DNA of 20,000 bases from the IMG/VR virus record IMGVR_UViG_3300029985_000038; one strand, given 5' to 3'. This document shows positions 2,992 to 20,000 of this stretch, piece by piece. The translations under genes and the position numbers were made by a program. Origin of the DNA: an uncultured virus (IMG/VR IMGVR_UViG_3300029985_000038) (Duplodnaviria > Heunggongvirae > Uroviricota > Caudoviricetes). Each line of letters opens with the position of its first letter. Position 1 is the first letter of the stretch. Under the pieces are notes generated by a model. It searched no databases and had not been told where the DNA came from. It saw only the letters and a program-made list of their open reading frames with translations.

Positions 2992-3011
2992 CTAATTAGG
3001 TATAATAAGGT

Positions 3012-6964: not shown

Positions 6965-7918
6965 ATGATTAATGATTATGTTGTCTATGATGGTGGTCAA
7001 CACCCCGAACTTGCGAAATTAATTGCCGATAGAGTTGGTTCTTTAGGCATTTTGACTGTTAAAAGATTTGCTGATGGTGAAATTGGTGTTAATATTGAGG
7101 AAAGCGTTCGTGATAAGAAAGTTTTCTTGATTGCTCCAACTGCACCACCAGTTAATGATAGCTTAATGGCACTTATGATTAGCTTAGATGCTTTTATGAG
7201 AGCTTCAGCTAGTGAGGTTAATGTGGTAATGCCATATTTTGGATATGCTCGTCAAGACAAAAAGGTTCATCCAAGAGAACCTATTACAGCAAAATTGGTG
7301 GCTAACATGCTTCAAATGTATAGTAACGTGAATCGAATCGTTACTTTAGATTTACACGCTCCACAAATTCAAGGTTTCTTTAATATTCCGGTAGACCATT
7401 TGTACGGTGGTCCACTTATTGCTGATTACTTCTTGGAAAGAGAATTTCATAAACAAAATATTGTTGTAGTGTCACCTGACGTATCTAGTGTTAGTAGAGC
7501 TAGAGGATTGGCTGATGTTTTGAAGTGTCCAATTGCGATCATTTCTAAGCGTAGACCAGTTGCTAATGAAGTTGAAATTATGGAAATCATTGGTGATGTT
7601 GATGATAAAATCTGCATTATGCTTGATGATATGTGCGATACAGGTTCAACTCTCGTGAAAGGATCTGAGGCTTTAATGCATCGTGGTGCAACTGAAGTTT
7701 ATATGGCTGCAACTCATGGACTATTTTCTGGTAAGGCTAAGAATAATTTTATGTCCGCAGATCACATTAAAGAAGTTGTATGTTTAAACACGACACCAAT
7801 GAATCAACATAAAATTTTTGATAAATTAACTGTTTTAGATTGTTCTCCAATGATTGCAGAAGCTATTGAACGAATTGCTGCTAATAAATCAGTTAGCGAA
7901 ATGTTTAATCGTGGATAA
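6965..7918 (+). CDS. prs: Ribose-phosphate pyrophosphokinase (PRPP synthetase)
   Basis: RFADGE, MPYFGYARQDKK, LDLHAPQIQGFF, VVVSPD and LDDMCDTGST (PRPP-binding loop), ATHGLFS. Start moved to ATG 6965. Confidence 0.95.
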   Translation: MINDYVVYDGGQHPELAKLIADRVGSLGILTVKRFADGEIGVNIEESVRDKKVFLIAPTAPPVNDSLMALMISLDAFMRASASEVNVVMPYFGYARQDKKVHPREPITAKLVANMLQMYSNVNRIVTLDLHAPQIQGFFNIPVDHLYGGPLIADYFLEREFHKQNIVVVSPDVSSVSRARGLADVLKCPIAIISKRRPVANEVEIMEIIGDVDDKICIMLDDMCDTGSTLVKGSEALMHRGATEVYMAATHGLFSGKAKNNFMSADHIKEVVCLNTTPMNQHKIFDKLTVLDCSPMIAEAIERIAANKSVSEMFNRG

Positions 7919-8639: not shown

Positions 8640-8733
8640 AGATTTATTTGAATCCAGATGGGATAAAATAGAAAGTTTAGTTTTAGATATTTAGTAGCAA
8701 GGACTTTGAATTTATTTTTTTAAAAATAGTAGC

Positions 8734-9048
8734 ATGGAGGACGACATGCTTGTAACAATTTTAATAGATTCATATTTAAATCTTGATTCGTTATTAAACA
8801 CAATAGATTTTATTAATGATAAATTCAAAAAAATAGAATTTGAAATAATAGTTCACGTACACGACGAAAACAACAGAGATGTTAAGAAAATTTTAGGTTA
8901 TATCTATGAACATAGAATCTGCAATCTTAGACTGTATACTAAGAATGATGATCAAATGCAAAATAAAGCTACAGGAGAAATGATCGTCAATTGGGTTGGT
9001 TTAGGAGAAAATCCTAAAATTCCCAAAAAAGTGTACGAACATGGATAA
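8734..9048 (+). CDS. Small protein resembling a degenerate GT2 N-terminal half
   Basis: VTILI, LLNTI, FEIIVHVHD and KATGEMIV follow the GT2 N-terminal pattern, but there is no DxD and it is only 104 aa. Confidence 0.5.
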   Translation: MEDDMLVTILIDSYLNLDSLLNTIDFINDKFKKIEFEIIVHVHDENNRDVKKILGYIYEHRICNLRLYTKNDDQMQNKATGEMIVNWVGLGENPKIPKKVYEHG

Positions 9049-9080
9049 AACCATGTAGGGTTGGGTATAATAAGGATACC

Positions 9081-9155
9081 ATGATGAACGCAACATCCAA
9101 TATGAATATCACTTCCAGCGTTCGTCTTCAGCAACGAAGACAGCAACGCCCATAA
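9081..9155 (+). CDS. Putative Gln/Arg-rich leader peptide MMNATSNMNITSSVRLQQRRQQRP (24 aa), absent from the ORF track
   Basis: TATAAT 9066-9071 and AAGGA 9072-9076 upstream. 8 of the last 10 codons are Gln or Arg. The TAA stop lies in the loop of hairpin ACGCCC-ATAA-GGGCGT, about 70 nt before the tRNA cluster. Confidence 0.65.
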   Translation: MMNATSNMNITSSVRLQQRRQQRP

Positions 9156-9226
9156 GGGCGTCTCTTTATGTCTACGTATATGTGCTGGCAATCCCAACCC
9201 TGTTTCTAAAATTTAATATATATTAT

Positions 9227-9297
9227 TGTGGATTCGTTCAATGGCAGGACCTAACACTTTGAATGTTAGTATTAGAGTTCGAATCTCTGATCCACGG
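9227..9297 (+). tRNA. tRNA-Gln(TTG)
   Basis: Acceptor TGTGGAT/ATCCACG, D-arm GTTC..GGAC, anticodon arm TAACA-CTTTGAA-TGTTA, T-loop TTCGAAT, G73; no encoded CCA. Confidence 0.92.
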
Positions 9298-9306
9298 CGA
9301 GAAAAT

Positions 9307-9406
9307 AGCGGATTCGTATAATGGTTATTATAATGGGCTTTTATTTCCTTTTCTTTAAAAGGGCGTAAGGAACCCACTGATTGGAGTTCGATTCTCTGAT
9401 CCGCTG
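9307..9406 (+). tRNA. tRNA with a 28-nt insert/intron in the anticodon loop (Gln-like body, anticodon uncertain)
   Basis: Acceptor AGCGGAT/ATCCGCT with normal D and T arms. Anticodon stem ATGGG/CCCAC encloses 35 nt (9338-9372) instead of 7. Confidence 0.75.
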
Positions 9407-9430
9407 CCGAGAGTTCTTTGAAAACATAAT

Positions 9431-9501
9431 AGCGGGTACTAATGGTTAGGAAAACGACTCTGAATCGTTTTAAAAGAGTTCGATTCTCTTACCCGCCGCC
9501 A
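9431..9501 (+). tRNA. tRNA-Gln(CTG), atypical compact D-arm
   Basis: Acceptor AGCGGGT/ACCCGCC, anticodon arm AAAACGA-CTCTGAA-TCGTTTT, T-arm AAGAG-TTCGATT-CTCTT, G73 plus encoded CCA. Confidence 0.8.
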
Positions 9502-9543
9502 ATTTTAAAGGAAATGATTTGAATTATTTTGAATGTTCAAAGT

Positions 9544-9960
9544 ATGGAATATAAAACTTGTTCAAAATGTCATTTAAAGAAATCTTTAGATTGTTTTAAT
9601 AAAAAAAGTGATAGAATTTTACAAACATATTGTAAAGATTGTCAAAAAAACATATCTCATGAACATTATGTAAAAAATAAACATACTTATTTAAGTAGAA
9701 ATATTAAAAGGAAGATAGATACAAGAGAATTTATAAATAGTTTAAAATTAAAACCATGTGTTGATTGTGGAAATCAATATGATCCGTGTGCAATGGATTT
9801 TGACCATATGGATGATAAAGAATATGATATATCTTCTATGGTAACTGTTGGTTTTTCTAAAAAATCTATTTTGAAAGAAATTTTAAAATGTGAATTAGTA
9901 TGTGCTGTTTGTCATAGAATTAGAACTAAAAAAAGATTAGAGAAAAGTATCTCCCTGTAG
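9544..9960 (+). CDS. HNH-type endonuclease with N-terminal zinc finger, free-standing in the tRNA cluster
   Basis: CSKC...CKDC, then CVDCG...MDFDH...KCELVCAVCHRIRT. Probable start is ATG 9544; the TAG stop overlaps the next tRNA. Confidence 0.8.
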   Translation: MEYKTCSKCHLKKSLDCFNKKSDRILQTYCKDCQKNISHEHYVKNKHTYLSRNIKRKIDTREFINSLKLKPCVDCGNQYDPCAMDFDHMDDKEYDISSMVTVGFSKKSILKEILKCELVCAVCHRIRTKKRLEKSISL

Positions 9961-10023
9961 TTCAGTGGATAGAATACAAGGTTGCGGACCTCGTGGTCGT
10001 GGGTTCGAGTCCCACTGGGGAGG
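9951..10023 (+). tRNA. tRNA-Arg(GCG)
   Basis: Acceptor CTCCCTG/TGGGGAG, D-loop AGTGGATA (A20), anticodon loop TTGCGGA, T-arm GTGGG-TTCGAGT-CCCAC. Confidence 0.88.
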
Positions 10024-10040
10024 CGAGAAAAATTTAATAT

Positions 10041-10118
10041 CTCCGCGTAGTAAGGGTGGTCTACGAAGCCATACACTTTAACGGACTGAAAATGCAGGTT
10101 CGAATCCTGTCGTGGAGG
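10041..10118 (+). tRNA. Non-canonical tRNA-Arg(ACG)-like RNA (no D-arm at the normal position)
   Basis: Acceptor CTCCGCG/CGTGGAG, T-arm GCAGG-TTCGAAT-CCTGT, anticodon arm GTGGT-CTACGAA-GCCAT only 8 nt after the acceptor strand; TAACGGACTGA lies 3' of it. Confidence 0.7.
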
Positions 10119-10129
10119 CGAGATATAAT

Positions 10130-10201
10130 ACCCTTGTGGTCCAATGGATGGGCTTCCGTCTTCGAAACGGATTTATGCTAGTTCGATTCTAGTCAAGGGT
10201 G
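10130..10201 (+). tRNA. tRNA-Arg(TCG)
   Basis: Acceptor ACCCTTG/CAAGGGT, D-loop AATGGAT, anticodon arm TCCGT-CTTCGAA-ACGGA, T-loop TTCGATT. Confidence 0.92.
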
Positions 10202-10212
10202 CGAGAATAAAT

Positions 10213-10299
10213 GCGGTGGTACACCATCGGTCTTCTAAACCGAATAAGTTAACTGGAGTGAGATCATTTCAAATACGGGTTCGAATCCCGTCTTCCGCG
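10213..10299 (+). tRNA. Non-canonical tRNA-Arg(TCT)-like RNA (no D-arm at the normal position)
   Basis: Acceptor GCGGTGG/CTTCCGC, anticodon arm TCGGT-CTTCTAA-ACCGA 7 nt after the acceptor strand, 31-nt region containing TAACTGGAGTGA, T-arm ACGGG-TTCGAAT-CCCGT. Confidence 0.7.
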
Positions 10300-10310
10300 C
10301 CGAGAAAAAT

Positions 10311-10382
10311 TTCCATATATCTCAAGGGATAGAGTCTCAGTTTCCTAAACTGAAGGTATGGGTTCGAATCCCATTATGGAAG
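10311..10382 (+). tRNA. tRNA-Arg(CCT)
   Basis: Acceptor TTCCATA/TATGGAA, anticodon arm TCAGT-TTCCTAA-ACTGA, T-arm ATGGG-TTCGAAT-CCCAT. Confidence 0.9.
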
Positions 10383-10404
10383 CGAGTTTAACTATAATAT
10401 CATT

Positions 10405-10638
10405 ATGAATGACTGGACTAATATTAAGAAAATAGCTTCTCAAGATAAAGACGTGTTAGATTACGTTCTTAAAAATGCTAAAGCATTAATGAAAGCTACT
10501 ATGACTCCAGAAGAATTCATTCTGAATATGCCTGATATTAATTTAACAGAACAAGAAAAAACTGGTAAAACCAGAGAAAAAATCGTTTTACCAAAATCAG
10601 GTGGTGGTACTATCATGATTAAAGGTGGCTGGTTCTAA
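10405..10638 (+). CDS. Hypothetical protein
   Basis: 77-aa ORF with TATAAT at 10393-10398, 6 nt before the ATG. Confidence 0.7.
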   Translation: MNDWTNIKKIASQDKDVLDYVLKNAKALMKATMTPEEFILNMPDINLTEQEKTGKTREKIVLPKSGGGTIMIKGGWF

Positions 10639-10650
10639 TTATAATAAAAT

Positions 10651-10908
10651 ATGAATGATCTAACAACAATAGAACAAAGGAAAAAGTTAGCTGAAGTCAT
10701 GTCGCCTTTAATTTTAGAGGCTCTAAGTGATGAAGAGGTCTTAGCTATTGATGATGAAAAAATAGCTACAAAAAAGAGACGGTTAGACTTCGACAGGGTG
10801 ATCTTATCTAAAATGGAGACACCAGAAGGAAGAGAAGAACTTAAAAAAATGATGAATTTTGCCATGAATCACAGTAAATGGGTTAATAAGATGAATCTTA
10901 TGAAGTAA
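10651..10908 (+). CDS. Hypothetical protein
   Basis: 85-aa ORF with TATAAT at 10640-10645; METPEGREEL motif. Confidence 0.75.
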   Translation: MNDLTTIEQRKKLAEVMSPLILEALSDEEVLAIDDEKIATKKRRLDFDRVILSKMETPEGREELKKMMNFAMNHSKWVNKMNLMK

Positions 10909-11310: not shown

Positions 11311-11796
11311 ATGGTAACAATTGCTAAAGCTTTAAAAATCAAAAACCGTGTCGCAGAGAAATTGCGCAAAGCCGAAAAAGAATTTATGAGAGTCAACTCT
11401 TACAGAGTTGATTTAGGAGTTGACAATCCCCCAGAAGAAGTTTGGGATAAGCTTGTCTCATTGAGAAGTGATTTGTGGCACTTAAAGTCCGCAATCGCTA
11501 AAGCTAATGCTCCTGTTCAAGATGCCATTTTTGAAATGGCAGAAATAAAAGCTGAGATTAGCTATTTAGGTGGTTTAACAACCACAAATGGTAAGGTTGC
11601 AGTAAATACTAATCGTTATGCTGGATTTAGTGAAGATTCAGACAGCGATAAGTTCGTTGAATACAAAGCTTACTTCAACCGCAAAGAAGTTGAAGAGAGA
11701 GTGGAAGATTTGCAAGCCGATTTAGATACTCTTCAAGAGAGATTAGATCACTTCAATAACACCACTAAAATTGATGTTGCATTTTTGGGAGAGTAA
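11311..11796 (+). CDS. DIP1984-like (DUF6847-like) coiled-coil protein
   Basis: SD AGAGGA. N-terminal TIAKALKIKNR, central LKSAIAKAN and C-terminal LDTLQERLDHFNNTT match my recollection of the family pattern; not confirmed by a search. Confidence 0.55.
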   Translation: MVTIAKALKIKNRVAEKLRKAEKEFMRVNSYRVDLGVDNPPEEVWDKLVSLRSDLWHLKSAIAKANAPVQDAIFEMAEIKAEISYLGGLTTTNGKVAVNTNRYAGFSEDSDSDKFVEYKAYFNRKEVEERVEDLQADLDTLQERLDHFNNTTKIDVAFLGE

Positions 11797-11983: not shown

Positions 11984-13246
11984 CGATAATTCTTTAAATT
12001 AAAGAATTTAAAGAAGGAATATTTTAATATCATATAGTATATAATTATGTGATAACAGATATTAAAGTAAGATTATATACAAACAAGGATCAATATAAAT
12101 CATTATTGAATTCTTTGTTGTGCTTTAATAAAATATGTAATTATATTTCTAATCAATCTTTTATTCACGGAAATGTAAAAAATAAAACTATATTGCATAA
12201 AATTACTTATAATTTAACTCGTGAGAATTTAAAAGAAGCAGATTCTCAGGTTACAATTAGAGCTATATCTAGAGTTGCAGATTCTTATAAGGTTTCTGTG
12301 CCTATTCAAGAAATTTTAAATAAAAAACGTATAATTAAAGGATTAAAACCGAAAGAAATAAAACCTAATTATTTTAAGCCAATTGCATCTATGGAATTGG
12401 ATAAATGGACAATGAGGTTTTTACAAATAAATAAATTATCTTTATGGTCGCCAGATGGAAGAATTCATGTCGATTATTCTATTCCTGATTATTTCAAATC
12501 TAGATTCAATAAAGATAAAATCAAGATGGCTAAATTGGTCTTGCAAAATGGTAAATTTTGGCTTCATTGCTCTATTGAAGAAAATGAACCAGAATTACAA
12601 GATCATATAGGATTTTTAGGAATTGATCAAGGTCAAGTTTATTTAGTGTCTGACTCCGAAGGAGAACAATATGAAGGCAAGACATTACAAAAGATAAGCA
12701 ATAAATATAAAACAAGAAGAGAATCATTACAAAAAAGTAAGAAAGCTAAGAAAACGAGAGCTAAAGCTAGAGCTTGGAAAAAATTAAGCAAGAAAGAATC
12801 TAGATTTAGACAAGATGTTAATCATCAAATAAGTAAAAGAATTGTTCAAAAAGCGAAAAACTTAAAGCAATGTATCGTCTTAGAAGACTTAAACGACTTC
12901 TTTGAAGATATAAAAGTTAGGCGTGAGAATAAATTTATGAGAAAATCTTGGGCATTCGCCCAACTAATCTTCTACATTCAATATAAAGCATTAAGAGAAG
13001 GAATAAGATGTATATTAGTTAACCCAGCTTATACCTCTCAACAATGCTATAATTGTAGATATTGTGATTCGAAGAATCGCAAATCACAAAGTATATTTGA
13101 ATGTATCAAATGTGGGTATATAAATAATGCAGATATTAATGCTGCCCTAAATATTGCCCTCAAGGGCAAATGTCAATTGTCCTATAGTTCGACAGCGGAA
13201 GCTGTTTAGAATAAATTAAACGAAAGTTTTATGAATTGATCCGTCG
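11984..13246 (+). mobile_element. tnpB-only IS200/IS605-derived element
   Basis: tnpB plus predicted omegaRNA, no tnpA. ATCCGTCG occurs at both sides (11976-11983 and 13239-13246); 10-bp inverted repeat at 11988-12008. Confidence 0.6.
12049..13209 (+). CDS. tnpB: RNA-guided endonuclease TnpB
   Basis: RuvC-I LGIDQG, RuvC-II IVLEDL, NPAYTSQQCYNC...CIKC zinc finger, RuvC-III NADINAALNI; D-E-D triad intact; 386 aa. Confidence 0.93.
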   Translation: MITDIKVRLYTNKDQYKSLLNSLLCFNKICNYISNQSFIHGNVKNKTILHKITYNLTRENLKEADSQVTIRAISRVADSYKVSVPIQEILNKKRIIKGLKPKEIKPNYFKPIASMELDKWTMRFLQINKLSLWSPDGRIHVDYSIPDYFKSRFNKDKIKMAKLVLQNGKFWLHCSIEENEPELQDHIGFLGIDQGQVYLVSDSEGEQYEGKTLQKISNKYKTRRESLQKSKKAKKTRAKARAWKKLSKKESRFRQDVNHQISKRIVQKAKNLKQCIVLEDLNDFFEDIKVRRENKFMRKSWAFAQLIFYIQYKALREGIRCILVNPAYTSQQCYNCRYCDSKNRKSQSIFECIKCGYINNADINAALNIALKGKCQLSYSSTAEAV

Positions 13247-15961: not shown

Positions 15962-17386
15962 TTACAAAGCAGCGTTAGCTCTAACAGTAGCCCAATCGTA
16001 AGCTTTGGTGACTTGTCCATTTCGGAACACTTCAACTAGATGATCCTGTTCGCCCTTAGCCTTAGCTTCAGCTTGAGAAACTGTAGTGAATACACCATCT
16101 CTCTTAATTAGTGACAAACGACCAGCCTTTGACTTCTTACCTGGATCAGTGATCGGATCTTTGAATACGTTGATATCCTCTCCATCAATTGTAGCTTCAG
16201 AACACTTAAAAGCGAACTTATTGGTGTCTCTATCAAGCTTCTGAAGTAGCGCACCACCCATACCAAAAGCAAGATTATCCATAGATTGACCGTGATTCTT
16301 TAGTTCTTGCATGATGTCCACACCAGATTCTAGACAAACACCGTCGCCTTGGATAACACGAACATGAGGATTAAGGACATCGTAACCCTTAGAGTTAGTT
16401 TCCATTCCAAACTGTTCGCCAAGAATCTTGATGATTTCTGGAACTACGACTCTTGCATTTCCGCTATCAGGTCGAACAACTAGAACACCATTTCGATTAA
16501 GAACCTTATCTTTTAGTTTCTTACCCCAGATTTCTCTACAAGCATTGAAGATGTCATAGCTATCACTTACACAAGCAACGAATCCTTCTGGGAATTCTTC
16601 TAGCATATTGTTGTAAGCATCTTCCTCATGAAGTCTACCCCATGAAGTCATTGTGCTGTGTTCTGATGCAGGAATTGAATTACCAGCGCAGAAATCACCA
16701 TAGATGTCATCAACTAAATCAAGAGCGATGTAAGTATCTGTTCCTTTAAAGTTTACCAAGTGAGCAGCACCACCGATTGCCGCAGATTCAACTGAGCTAA
16801 CGCCTCTGAATCCAAAGTCATGTAGCTTATAGTCGATTCCAGCAGGATCACCAGTTTCAATAAGGAAGCGTAAAATGTTCTTCTTGAAGTCTCTTGAAAG
16901 ACTACAAACAGTCGTAGGAAACCAATTTTGAACAAGAAGACTTTCGACAGAATTTGTAAGCCAGTAAGATGACTCTTCGTGCTTTGCAAGAAATTCGTCG
17001 TCAGTAATTTTAACGTCCATGAGAACGTTATGTGTAGGAACCGTAATACCTTCAGCAACGGCTCTAATAGAAAGAGGAAGGTAACCGTTATGCTTTTCGA
17101 GAATATGTTCCCAACCAGAACGATTAAAAAGGTCTTGACCGAAAAAGTGAGGCTTTGCACGATTGGCAGCGTCGTCAATATTTTTTCTAGTAACTACTTG
17201 ACCGGCAAGATATTGGACTAAGGTGTATTGCAATCCGAAGAATGTAGTTTCATCAAACTTACCACCACGAGATTCGAAATAGGATCGGATGTTGGTGGTC
17301 TTCTTTGGGTACTGACCCTTATGGGTGAGTTTGTAGCTATCTGTTAGCTTAACGATGTTATTATATTGAACTTTTCTAAGTGTCAT
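15962..17386 (-). CDS. nadV: Nicotinamide phosphoribosyltransferase (NAMPT/NadV)
   Basis: TDSYKLTH, YFESRGG, LHDFGFRG, GTDT, SIPASEHS, VSDSYD, RPDSG, IQGDG, AFGMGG and KKSKAG. Start at ATG 17386 with AGGA SD and TACAAT at 17404-17409. Confidence 0.95.
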   Translation of the reverse strand: MTLRKVQYNNIVKLTDSYKLTHKGQYPKKTTNIRSYFESRGGKFDETTFFGLQYTLVQYLAGQVVTRKNIDDAANRAKPHFFGQDLFNRSGWEHILEKHNGYLPLSIRAVAEGITVPTHNVLMDVKITDDEFLAKHEESSYWLTNSVESLLVQNWFPTTVCSLSRDFKKNILRFLIETGDPAGIDYKLHDFGFRGVSSVESAAIGGAAHLVNFKGTDTYIALDLVDDIYGDFCAGNSIPASEHSTMTSWGRLHEEDAYNNMLEEFPEGFVACVSDSYDIFNACREIWGKKLKDKVLNRNGVLVVRPDSGNARVVVPEIIKILGEQFGMETNSKGYDVLNPHVRVIQGDGVCLESGVDIMQELKNHGQSMDNLAFGMGGALLQKLDRDTNKFAFKCSEATIDGEDINVFKDPITDPGKKSKAGRLSLIKRDGVFTTVSQAEAKAKGEQDHLVEVFRNGQVTKAYDWATVRANAAL

Positions 17387-19324: not shown

Positions 19325-20000
19325 ATGACTCAAGAACTAACCAAAGAAATCGAAGAAATTATCAAATCACAAAATCTTAATTGTTCAGTAAAACAATTCA
19401 AAGAAAAAGTTGATTGGTATTCTATTTCACAATATCAAAAATTATCAGAACAATTTATTGAACAATTCAAAGAAAAAGTTGATTGGTATTATATTTCAAA
19501 ACATCAAAAATTATCAGAACAATTTATTGAACAATTCAAAGAAAAAGTTGATTGGTATTCTATTTCAATATATCAAAAATTATCAGAACAATTTATTGAA
19601 CAATTCAAAGAAAAAGTTGATTGGATTTATATTTCAAAACATCAAAAATTATCAGAACAATTTATTGAACAATTCAAAGAAAAAGTTGATTGGTATTCTA
19701 TTTTACAATATCAAAAATTATCAGAACAATTTATTGAACAATTCAAAGAAAAAGTTAATTGGAATTTTATTTCAATATATCAAAAATTATCAGAACAATT
19801 TATTGAACAATTCAAAGAAAAAGTTGATTGGTATTATATTTCAAAACATCAAAAATTATCAGAACAATTTATTGAACAATTCAAAGAAAAAGTTGATTGG
19901 AATTATATTTCAAAACATCAAAAATTATCAGAACAATTTATTGAACAATTCAAAGAAAAAGTTGATTGGTATTCTATTTTAATGTGTCAAAAATTATCAG
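19325..20000 (+). CDS. Tryptophan-repeat protein (23-aa repeats), 3'-truncated by the window edge
   Basis: ATG 19325 with TATACT 6 nt upstream. Frame reads MTQELTKEIEE...(QFKEKVDWxxIxxxQKLSEQFIE)n and stays open to 20000; missing from the ORF track because it has no stop in the window. Confidence 0.85.
   Translation, partial: MTQELTKEIEEIIKSQNLNCSVKQFKEKVDWYSISQYQKLSEQFIEQFKEKVDWYYISKHQKLSEQFIEQFKEKVDWYSISIYQKLSEQFIEQFKEKVDWIYISKHQKLSEQFIEQFKEKVDWYSILQYQKLSEQFIEQFKEKVNWNFISIYQKLSEQFIEQFKEKVDWYYISKHQKLSEQFIEQFKEKVDWNYISKHQKLSEQFIEQFKEKVDWYSILMCQKLS
19393..20000 (+). repeat. 69-bp coding tandem repeat, about 9 copies visible
   Basis: TGATTGG/TAATTGG recurs at 19411, 19480, 19549, 19618, 19687, 19756, 19825, 19894 and 19963. 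Confidence 0.95.

Follow-up and report, generated by a model that had tools for sequence, protein, structure and literature searches.

Leader peptides with runs of cognate codons control amino-acid operons in the textbook form of attenuation, as in the trpL, hisL, thrL and ilv leaders and in pheM of pheST. In pyrBI of E. coli the leader open reading frame (ORF) enters the terminator hairpin, and termination is avoided only if a ribosome follows the polymerase closely; tnaC responds to free tryptophan by way of Rho, and T-boxes control synthetase and amino-acid genes independently of translation. The tnaC leader of the tryptophanase operon is treated in the available part of PMC8429421. In the literature, searched at the level of titles and abstracts, no account was found of leader-peptide control of tRNA genes. 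Here we report on such a candidate in a 20,000-nt stretch of DNA (the window, to which all positions refer) from an uncultured virus of the Caudoviricetes (IMG/VR record IMGVR_UViG_3300029985_000038), where a short ORF at 9081-9155 ends in Gln and Arg codons immediately upstream of a cluster of Gln- and Arg-type tRNA genes. A first-pass annotation of this locus had proposed a leader that senses tRNA depletion; our analysis supports the Gln/Arg ORF in a leader that is structured, preceded by a box resembling a promoter and followed by a GC-rich hairpin whose tail is rich in U, but not the depletion-sensing step. The features are collected in Table 1.

The predicted peptide of 24 residues has the C-terminus RLQQRRQQRP, just as had been annotated, and is encoded at 9123-9155 by the terminal codons CGT CTT CAG CAA CGA AGA CAG CAA CGC CCA TAA. 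A gap of 71 nt separates the stop codon from the first tRNA gene, and all eight tRNA or tRNA-like genes that follow are of Gln or Arg type. The locus shares with trp-type leaders the presence of codons cognate to the putatively regulated product, eight out of nine codons being Gln or Arg before a cluster restricted to the same two amino acids. The run contains six of the eight Gln/Arg codon types, including the rare CGA, CGC and CAG; its four Arg positions carry four different codons (P 0.05 under the codon usage of the window) and the rare CAG occurs twice. The phage uses AGA for 58% of its Arg codons and CAA for 89% of its Gln codons, and the run departs from both preferences. This off-usage choice fits a frame that samples tRNAs, and equally a sequence lacking coding selection. 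Both Gln codons and four Arg codons had been said to find an exact complement each among the anticodons of the cluster. The codon set is as described, and five of the six types are so matched (CAA/TTG, CAG/CTG, CGA/TCG, AGA/TCT and CGC/GCG), but CGT lacks an exact complement and could be decoded by the GCG tRNA through wobble. No family match was obtained for the leader peptide in Pfam or PHROG.

The codon-tRNA match at this locus is statistically exceptional and exceeds chance. A run of eight Gln/Arg codons in nine is unique among about 40,000 nine-codon segments in the six frames of the window; the next-best place, with six in nine, consists of two overlapping segments at 8853-8856, out of frame within the upstream gene, and the real proteins of the window reach a maximum of five in nine. 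When the whole leader was shuffled, an ATG-initiated ORF with such a run was obtained in none of 100,000 cases, while shuffling the GC-rich core alone returned the run in 2/100,000. These null models ignore a 12-nt duplication in a U-free stretch that makes up half of the run: as the first-pass annotation had cautioned, part of the run derives from duplication, CAGCAACG being repeated at 9129-9136 and 9141-9148. We take the real chance probability to be closer to 1e-3 to 1e-4 than to 1e-5.

The RNA of the leader is strongly folded. Positions 9078-9192 gave a fold of -35.5 kcal/mol (z -4.69) and inclusion of a candidate closing stem brought the z score to -5.32; in both cases none of 200 shuffles was as stable. 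Taken alone, the closing stem is not significant: perfect 9-nt inverted repeats turned up in 549 of 5000 shuffled sequences, and when the real window was cut into 152 tiles, 43 of them had one as well. The leader holds a first hairpin (P2), a transient helix (AT) and a long irregular hairpin (P3), whose tip is a short GC-rich hairpin (T). AT is the fold of lowest energy when the nascent RNA has grown to position 9150, and it shares 4 nt with the 5' arm of T. Four pairings had been proposed to compete with each other, and all of them exist (GTCTTC/GAAGAC at 9124-9129/9136-9141, the hairpin at 9146-9161, CAGCA/TGCTG and AGACA/TGTCT); the last two are not competitors, as they form the lower part of P3 in the minimum-energy fold with T at its tip. 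By GC pairs T is the top terminator-like site of the window, and with 6 bp, -10.0 kcal/mol and the tail CUCUUUAU it passes a simple terminator scan, whose count over the window stands at chance level.

The effect of a translating ribosome was evaluated by folding the nascent RNA at growing lengths and by placing a ribosome footprint at every codon, with 3' edges of +9, +12 and +15 nt. With CGT, CTT or CAG occupied by the ribosome, T was formed with a probability of at least 0.97, and for some of the footprints the same held with CAA and CGA. It was lost only by direct occlusion, with the ribosome on the last 3-5 sense codons or on the stop, and its probability was 0 for a ribosome at the stop codon TAA (9153-9155). 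Once T can form, its state beats AT by 5.8 kcal/mol even with segment 1 covered, and AT requires a ribosome upstream of about 9105, where the codons specify Ala, Thr, Ser, Asn and Met. In trp-type leaders the position of the stop lets the terminator form after an unstalled ribosome, while here TAA lies in the loop of T; as in pyrBI, the ORF overlaps the terminator, so that a close ribosome blocks the hairpin. The proposal that ribosome stalling gates the production of scarce tRNAs was therefore not borne out, since T persists at the first codons of the run and the stop lies inside its loop. Ribosome and polymerase are spaced by about 30 nt, and with this spacing the polymerase would already have arrived at the U tail, or left it behind, by the time a ribosome stands on the codons that occlude T. 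The geometry implies that slow decoding of the first Gln/Arg codons would favour T and prompt decoding would favour read-through. The ORF region (9078-9155) has a C/G ratio of 1.92 (23 C vs 12 G), which ranks it among roughly the highest 3% of the window, with the RNA stably folded, and after the stop C is about equal to G. A Rho-based version would have the same sign, as stalling would open P3 and leave the pyrimidine-rich stretch 9160-9207 accessible.

Compared with amino-acid attenuators, the locus offers a short ORF within a structured leader, a cognate codon run and, beyond the ORF, a GC hairpin tailed by U-rich sequence, and a set of 1:2, 2:3 and 3:4 pairings can be drawn from P2 (9083-9126), AT (9118-9149) and T (9146-9161). 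Unlike those systems, the regulated genes would specify tRNAs instead of biosynthetic enzymes, segments 2-3 and the terminator arm hold the codon run in place of segment 1, and the 2:3 helix, at a disadvantage of 5.8 kcal/mol, reaches over only 4 nt of the 6-nt terminator arm; the stop, moreover, is in the terminator loop and not before segment 2, and the U tail is weak. The closest likeness in geometry is with pyrBI, where the ORF likewise runs into the hairpin, in agreement with the footprint results, although what pyrBI senses is UTP-dependent polymerase pausing and not decoding, and a U-rich tract for pausing is not evident in this leader, in which P2 could serve as a pause hairpin. With tnaC the locus shares a 24-residue peptide ending in Arg-Pro-stop, and a ribosome held as the ORF ends would mask the RNA by the stop; in contrast to tnaC, the RNA that follows the stop folds stably, and any rut site or boxA would be hypothetical. 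A T-box is also a leader RNA that reads tRNA status via a codon and controls a terminator, but an Rfam scan of 8900-10500 (E up to 10) returned no T-box match. In the T4 tRNA region the cluster is similarly split by a homing endonuclease (segB) and adjoined by structured RNAs of 119-139 nt with an undefined role; there, rnaC and rnaD stand at the 3' end of the cluster and lack a cognate-codon ORF, and segB is a GIY-YIG enzyme while the endonuclease of this phage is of the HNH type.

A TATAAT box followed by an AAGGA motif precedes the ORF, so that the short leader ORF with start signals typical of trp-type leaders is found here in sequence features (ATG 9081/9084, TATAAT, AAGGA). AAGGA would serve only those transcripts that begin upstream of the box. 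The extended box GGGTATAATAAGG is the same as at 3001 and 6953, and we consider it a good candidate for the promoter of the tRNA operon, with a predicted start site, while the ORF breaks the rule of gene starts that holds elsewhere in the window. Of 27 presumed gene starts, 12 have an exact TATAAT 5-7 nt before the ATG, compared with none of 776 other ATGs (sites at 688, 3001, 3846, 6953, 10393, 10640, 10915, 13270 and 18743 on the plus strand; 17877, 15279 and 6901 on the minus strand), and the ORFs opened by these 12 TATAAT-N5-7-ATG sites have 77-430 codons each. The TAA stop of the previous gene falls within the box in three cases, and no conserved -35 element was found. The boxes look like -10 elements, with one promoter per gene and leaderless mRNAs. 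The available portion of the phiKZ transcriptome report (PMC8244752) describes no leaderless phage transcripts and hence offers no precedent for this TATAAT-ATG rule. The gene for nicotinamide phosphoribosyltransferase (NAMPT) has instead TTGACA-18-TACAAT and AGGAAA, which indicates that the host reads sigma-70-type promoters and Shine-Dalgarno sites, and the gene at 11311 uses the Shine-Dalgarno sequence AGAGGAAAG. Further AT-rich hexamers resembling a -10 element lie directly before the first tRNA gene (CTGGCA-16-TAAAAT, 9185-9212).

We tentatively lean towards a translated leader whose decoding is coupled to the tRNA operon, a reading that we hold to be quite possible though doubtful, with promoter and start site, translation and effect on transcription all predicted. 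Positions 9066-9226 would then comprise the promoter and a strongly folded 5' leader of about 149 nt belonging to a Gln/Arg-type tRNA operon, the 24-codon ORF at the 5' end of the leader would be translated, and where the ribosome stands within the Gln/Arg run would decide the fold of the leader and tie tRNA expression to Gln/Arg decoding. With such a coupled leader the codon match would be accounted for, and so would the unbroken frame, the placing of its ATG beside the predicted start and the hairpin that follows the stop. Its most likely mode, not probable when taken by itself, is an occlusion of the pyrBI kind: a ribosome past CGT, CTT, CAG and CAA and close behind the polymerase would block T, whereas with the ribosome held at the first codons T could form and bring transcription to a stop or a pause. 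Read-through would thus follow from prompt decoding and might serve as a check that the tRNAs are usable or charged, rather than as a depletion alarm.

A number of observations weigh against the coupled leader. The spacing between TATAAT and ATG 9081 is 9 nt, outside the 5-7 nt of all 12 TATAAT-led genes; transcription would be expected to begin near 9078, with about 3 nt left ahead of the ATG, and the second ATG is buried by P2. T forms with a probability of about 1 for any ribosome position up to an A-site at 9132-9135, and there is no effective antiterminator of the kind on which trp-type control depends. The tail of T is weak, as the first-pass annotation had already warned, and the 11 terminator-like sites of the window (8.6 +/- 2.8 expected) are at chance level, making T doubtful as a terminator. 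The duplication within the U-free stretch makes a chance origin of the run likelier than the shuffle counts indicate, and the locus was itself selected out of a very large scan. Conservation lends no support, the sequence being identical in four peat runs, and it is not obvious how a phage with back-up tRNAs would profit from the sign that the folding supports. The coupled leader is thus weakened by spacing, poor terminator and geometry alike.

Several of these points would be expected of a non-coding structured leader or small stable RNA, in which the ORF and its run are incidental to a U-free duplicated helix strand; we regard this as a substantial alternative, if a less probable one than the coupled leader. 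The folded RNA (P2 plus P3/T) would be transcribed from the promoter at 9066, either as the leading part of the pre-tRNA transcript or as an independent molecule, some 90-130 nt long, with its 3' end at T or beyond 9202, and would have a role in stability or processing or an undefined one, as for the small RNAs of the T4 tRNA cluster. The strong folding with or without the closing stem, the ORF start that violates the 5-7 nt rule and a geometry unsuited to a stall sensor all agree with it, the tRNAs may have a promoter of their own in the hexamers at 9185-9212, and T4 provides a precedent in the stable RNAs of 139 and 119 nt beside its endonuclease-split cluster. Its cost is that the codon match must be chance; moreover, local alignment of 9056-9202 with rnaC and rnaD gave scores of 12 and 14, within the range of shuffles, no Rfam family other than tRNA exceeded its gathering score in 8900-10500, and the role of the RNA is undefined. 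The leader was also considered as a decayed tRNA, which was rejected because its alignment to the cluster falls in the shuffle range. A very improbable alternative places the function in the basic 24-residue peptide, as an Arg-rich binder of the adjacent GC hairpin or as a factor in a tRNA contest, with the link to the tRNA identities then being chance. The RLQQRRQQRP end with four Arg, the GC hairpin (4-nt loop) in which the ORF terminates and the activity of other small phage peptides of such size, for instance T4 Stp, would suit this role, but a family match is missing, the Arg residues are only four, the codon choice is off phage usage and the match to the cluster is left unexplained. Least probable of all is that the closed 147-nt element 9056-9202 works as a branched terminator or insulator, ending at GTTTCT (9202-9207) those upstream-gene transcripts that hold both stem arms, while transcripts from the internal TATAAT, without the 5' arm, would continue into the tRNAs. 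The 10-bp GC-rich closing stem followed by a U-rich stretch, the z score of -5.32, the promoter box just inside the 5' arm and the lack of another terminator-like site between the gene at 8734-9048 and the tRNAs speak for an insulator; the inverted repeat is common by chance, branched terminators with a 127-nt insert are unusual and the U stretch is weak.

The depletion sensor of the trp or tna kind is one form of the coupled leader and is counted within its share of probability, and we consider it unlikely. In this model an attack by an anticodon nuclease would stall ribosomes at Gln/Arg codons, prevent intrinsic or Rho-dependent termination and turn on the back-up tRNAs, the phage using the 24-codon frame to gauge the reading speed of the codons of its own tRNAs. 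Besides the codon match, the model could draw on the occlusion of T by stalls at the last 3-5 codons, on the excess of C over G in the ORF region, as in rut sites, and on a peptide that resembles TnaC in its 24 residues and its Arg-Pro-stop end. Against it, T is intact for stalls at CGT, CTT and CAG (and, by footprint, CAA and CGA), the occluding codons would be reached only with the polymerase already at or past the U tail, and the stop in the hairpin loop means that an unstalled ribosome blocks T too. Stable folds disfavour the loading of Rho, a stall would expose and not hide 9160-9207, and the ACG tRNA of the first-pass list is unconfirmed. Phage tRNAs as an escape from tRNA-cleaving defences are in print, in the available parts of PMC10264068 and PMC11555353, which speaks for the model. 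Still less likely, in our judgement, are the other couplings, via Rho or processing.

If the ORF is translated and coupled to the operon, phages would tune tRNA supply by directly testing decoding, a new variant of ribosome-mediated attenuation; the depletion sensor, if true, would represent leader-peptide control of tRNA genes as counter-defence. The sign of the switch would tell why phages carry tRNAs, read-through on stalling pointing to a back-up against anticodon nucleases and read-through on prompt decoding to a tRNA supply matched to translational capacity. With a cluster restricted to two amino acids and a leader composed almost purely of their codons, the locus lends itself to a stringent test. 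If the ORF is incidental, it gives a warning that striking codon matches arise in scans of such size.

Table 1. Positions of the leader features and of the genes of the tRNA cluster in the window.
Feature	Position	Strand	Basis and remarks
TATAAT box, GGGTATAATAA context, likely -10 of the tRNA-operon promoter	9066..9071	+	TGGATA-18-TATAAT; predicted start ~9078
AAGGA, Shine-Dalgarno-like	9072..9076	+	4 nt before ATG 9081, 7 nt before ATG 9084
Predicted leader ORF, 24 codons, peptide MMNATSNMNITSSVRLQQRRQQRP	9081..9155	+	ATG 9081 to TAA 9153-9155, from sequence
Gln/Arg codon run CGT CTT CAG CAA CGA AGA CAG CAA CGC (8/9)	9123..9149	+	codon counts and shuffles
Hairpin P2, 9083-9091 with 9118-9126	9083..9126	+	9 bp, -10.5 kcal/mol
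Transient helix AT (GCGUUCGUCUUC...GAAGAC.A.GCAACGC)	9118..9149	+	-12.2 kcal/mol; holds the GTCTTC/GAAGAC hairpin
Hairpin T, ACGCCC-AUAA-GGGCGU, tail CUCUUUAUGU	9146..9171	+	6 bp, -10.0 kcal/mol; stop codon in loop
Long irregular hairpin P3, T as tip, 5' strand formed by the Gln/Arg run	9128..9188	+	-23.6 kcal/mol
Closing stem candidate, 5' arm AGGGTTGGG	9056..9065	+	upstream of predicted transcription start
Closing stem candidate, 3' arm CCCAACCCT, then GTTTCTAAAATTT	9193..9202	+	inverted repeat, folding
tRNA-Gln (TTG)	9227..9297	+	ARAGORN; Rfam 46.9 bits
Gln-like tRNA gene, 29-nt insert after position 37, UUU at the Rfam anticodon position	9307..9406	+	40.1 bits; missed by default ARAGORN
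tRNA-Gln (CTG), short D arm	9431..9498	+	Rfam 31.1 bits (gathering score 29)
HNH homing-endonuclease gene, within the tRNA cluster	9544..9960	+	PHROG 2255, E 1.3e-29
tRNA-Arg (GCG)	9951..10023	+	ARAGORN; Rfam 53.5 bits
Weak Arg-like tRNA-like gene	10041..10119	+	Rfam 16.3 bits, E 4.6; ARAGORN only at relaxed thresholds
tRNA-Arg (TCG)	10130..10201	+	ARAGORN; Rfam 53.3 bits
tRNA-Arg (TCT), without D arm, 28-nt variable-region insert	10213..10299	+	Rfam 35.5 bits
tRNA-Arg (CCT)	10311..10382	+	ARAGORN; Rfam 59.8 bits

The tRNA genes were detected with ARAGORN, which called four, and with the Rfam tRNA model, which placed seven above the gathering score and returned one weak match. The genes with anticodons TTG, CTG, GCG, TCG, TCT and CCT and the insert-bearing gene of the first-pass list were recovered by Rfam, but its ACG tRNA was not: the gene at 10041-10119 has no ACG in a canonical anticodon loop, and ARAGORN at relaxed thresholds assigned it another anticodon. 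Likewise, at the anticodon position of the insert-bearing gene Rfam put UUU and not CTG. Four of the eight genes are aberrant (9307-9406, in which the 29-nt insert is a hairpin, 9431-9498, 10041-10119, which has no clear anticodon, and 10213-10299) and could be pseudogenes, decoys or nuclease-resistant forms. The anticodons of the cluster include some for codons that are rare in the phage (CGA 7%, CGC 7%, AGG 5% and CGG 1% of Arg; CAG 11% of Gln), and the set is unexplained by the phage's own codon usage. In seven of the eight genes (C)CGAG follows right after the discriminator (trailers at 9298, 9407, 10024, 10120, 10202, 10300 and 10383), and the gene at 9431-9498 alone is followed by CCA. 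These trailers account for 7 of the 14 plus-strand CGAG occurrences in the window and may be a common 3' processing signal. The end of the HNH gene overlaps the start of the tRNA-Arg (GCG) gene by 10 nt. In the second tRNA gene, 15 nt of the insert (9346-9360) show 87% complementarity to 9503-9517, just before the HNH ORF, and the insert shares the 8-mer AAGGGCGT (9359-9366) with the 3' arm of hairpin T (9154-9161); both the complementarity and the common 8-mer may be chance.

The window has a G+C content of 33% and reads as part of a very large phage genome. Its genes include glycosyltransferases, an ATP-dependent DNA ligase, a phage-type repair exonuclease, a phosphoribosyl pyrophosphate (PRPP) synthase, NAMPT, a TnpB-like gene and the HNH endonuclease, and its nearest protein relatives are carried by contigs of 295,442 and 521,591 nt. 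The exonuclease and the PRPP synthase occur together on the contigs of three relatives, of 295,442 nt (97-98% identity), 17,246 nt (72-74%) and 13,026 nt (63-67%). All 15 runs with window sequence are peat or permafrost DNA metagenomes, none being an RNA dataset, and in the contigs from four other peat runs the leader is identical to that of the window, leaving no variants to compare. Searches for relatives of the locus returned little. A blastn search of phage genomes with 8700-10700 gave a 55-nt tRNA-Arg piece as the sole match, and no relative DNA was recovered from IMG/VR with the 234-aa glycosyltransferase, the PRPP synthase or a 23-nt word of the leader. Scans of metagenomes and genomes by PRPP-synthase alignment were dominated by cellular homologues, with a top identity of 53%. 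A pattern made of the 3' half of a tRNA-Arg plus trailer matched once, on an unrelated 3.6-kb contig without tRNAs, a degenerate QQRRQQRP-stop pattern had 0 matches, and the antisense ORF across the leader, used as a protein query, found no homologue.

The PRPP-synthase search of IMG/VR led to 20 viral loci, again with a top identity of 53%, and the exonuclease of the window was present in neither of the two largest records. Only 5 of the 20 loci have tRNA genes (12 in total), too few for a survey of leaders at the level of the class. One of them, in an unrelated 378-kb phage from IMG/VR reached via its PRPP synthase, has two tRNAs with the amber-reading anticodon CTA at 20108-20275, which hints at stop-codon recoding in that phage.

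Some further features of the window were recorded. The PRPP synthase (6965-7918) and the nicotinamide phosphoribosyltransferase (15962-17386, minus strand) form an auxiliary NAD-salvage gene pair; the true start of the former is ATG 6965 (MINDY..., in agreement with the protein P0001 of a relative) and not TTG 6875. The phage genome carries at 12049-13209 a TnpB or Cas12f-like gene with an OrfB_IS605 and a TNB domain. Finally, a 69-nt tandem repeat with 8.8 copies and 93% matches occupies 19392-20000, within an ORF that leaves the window and whose product is a protein of 23-residue repeats.

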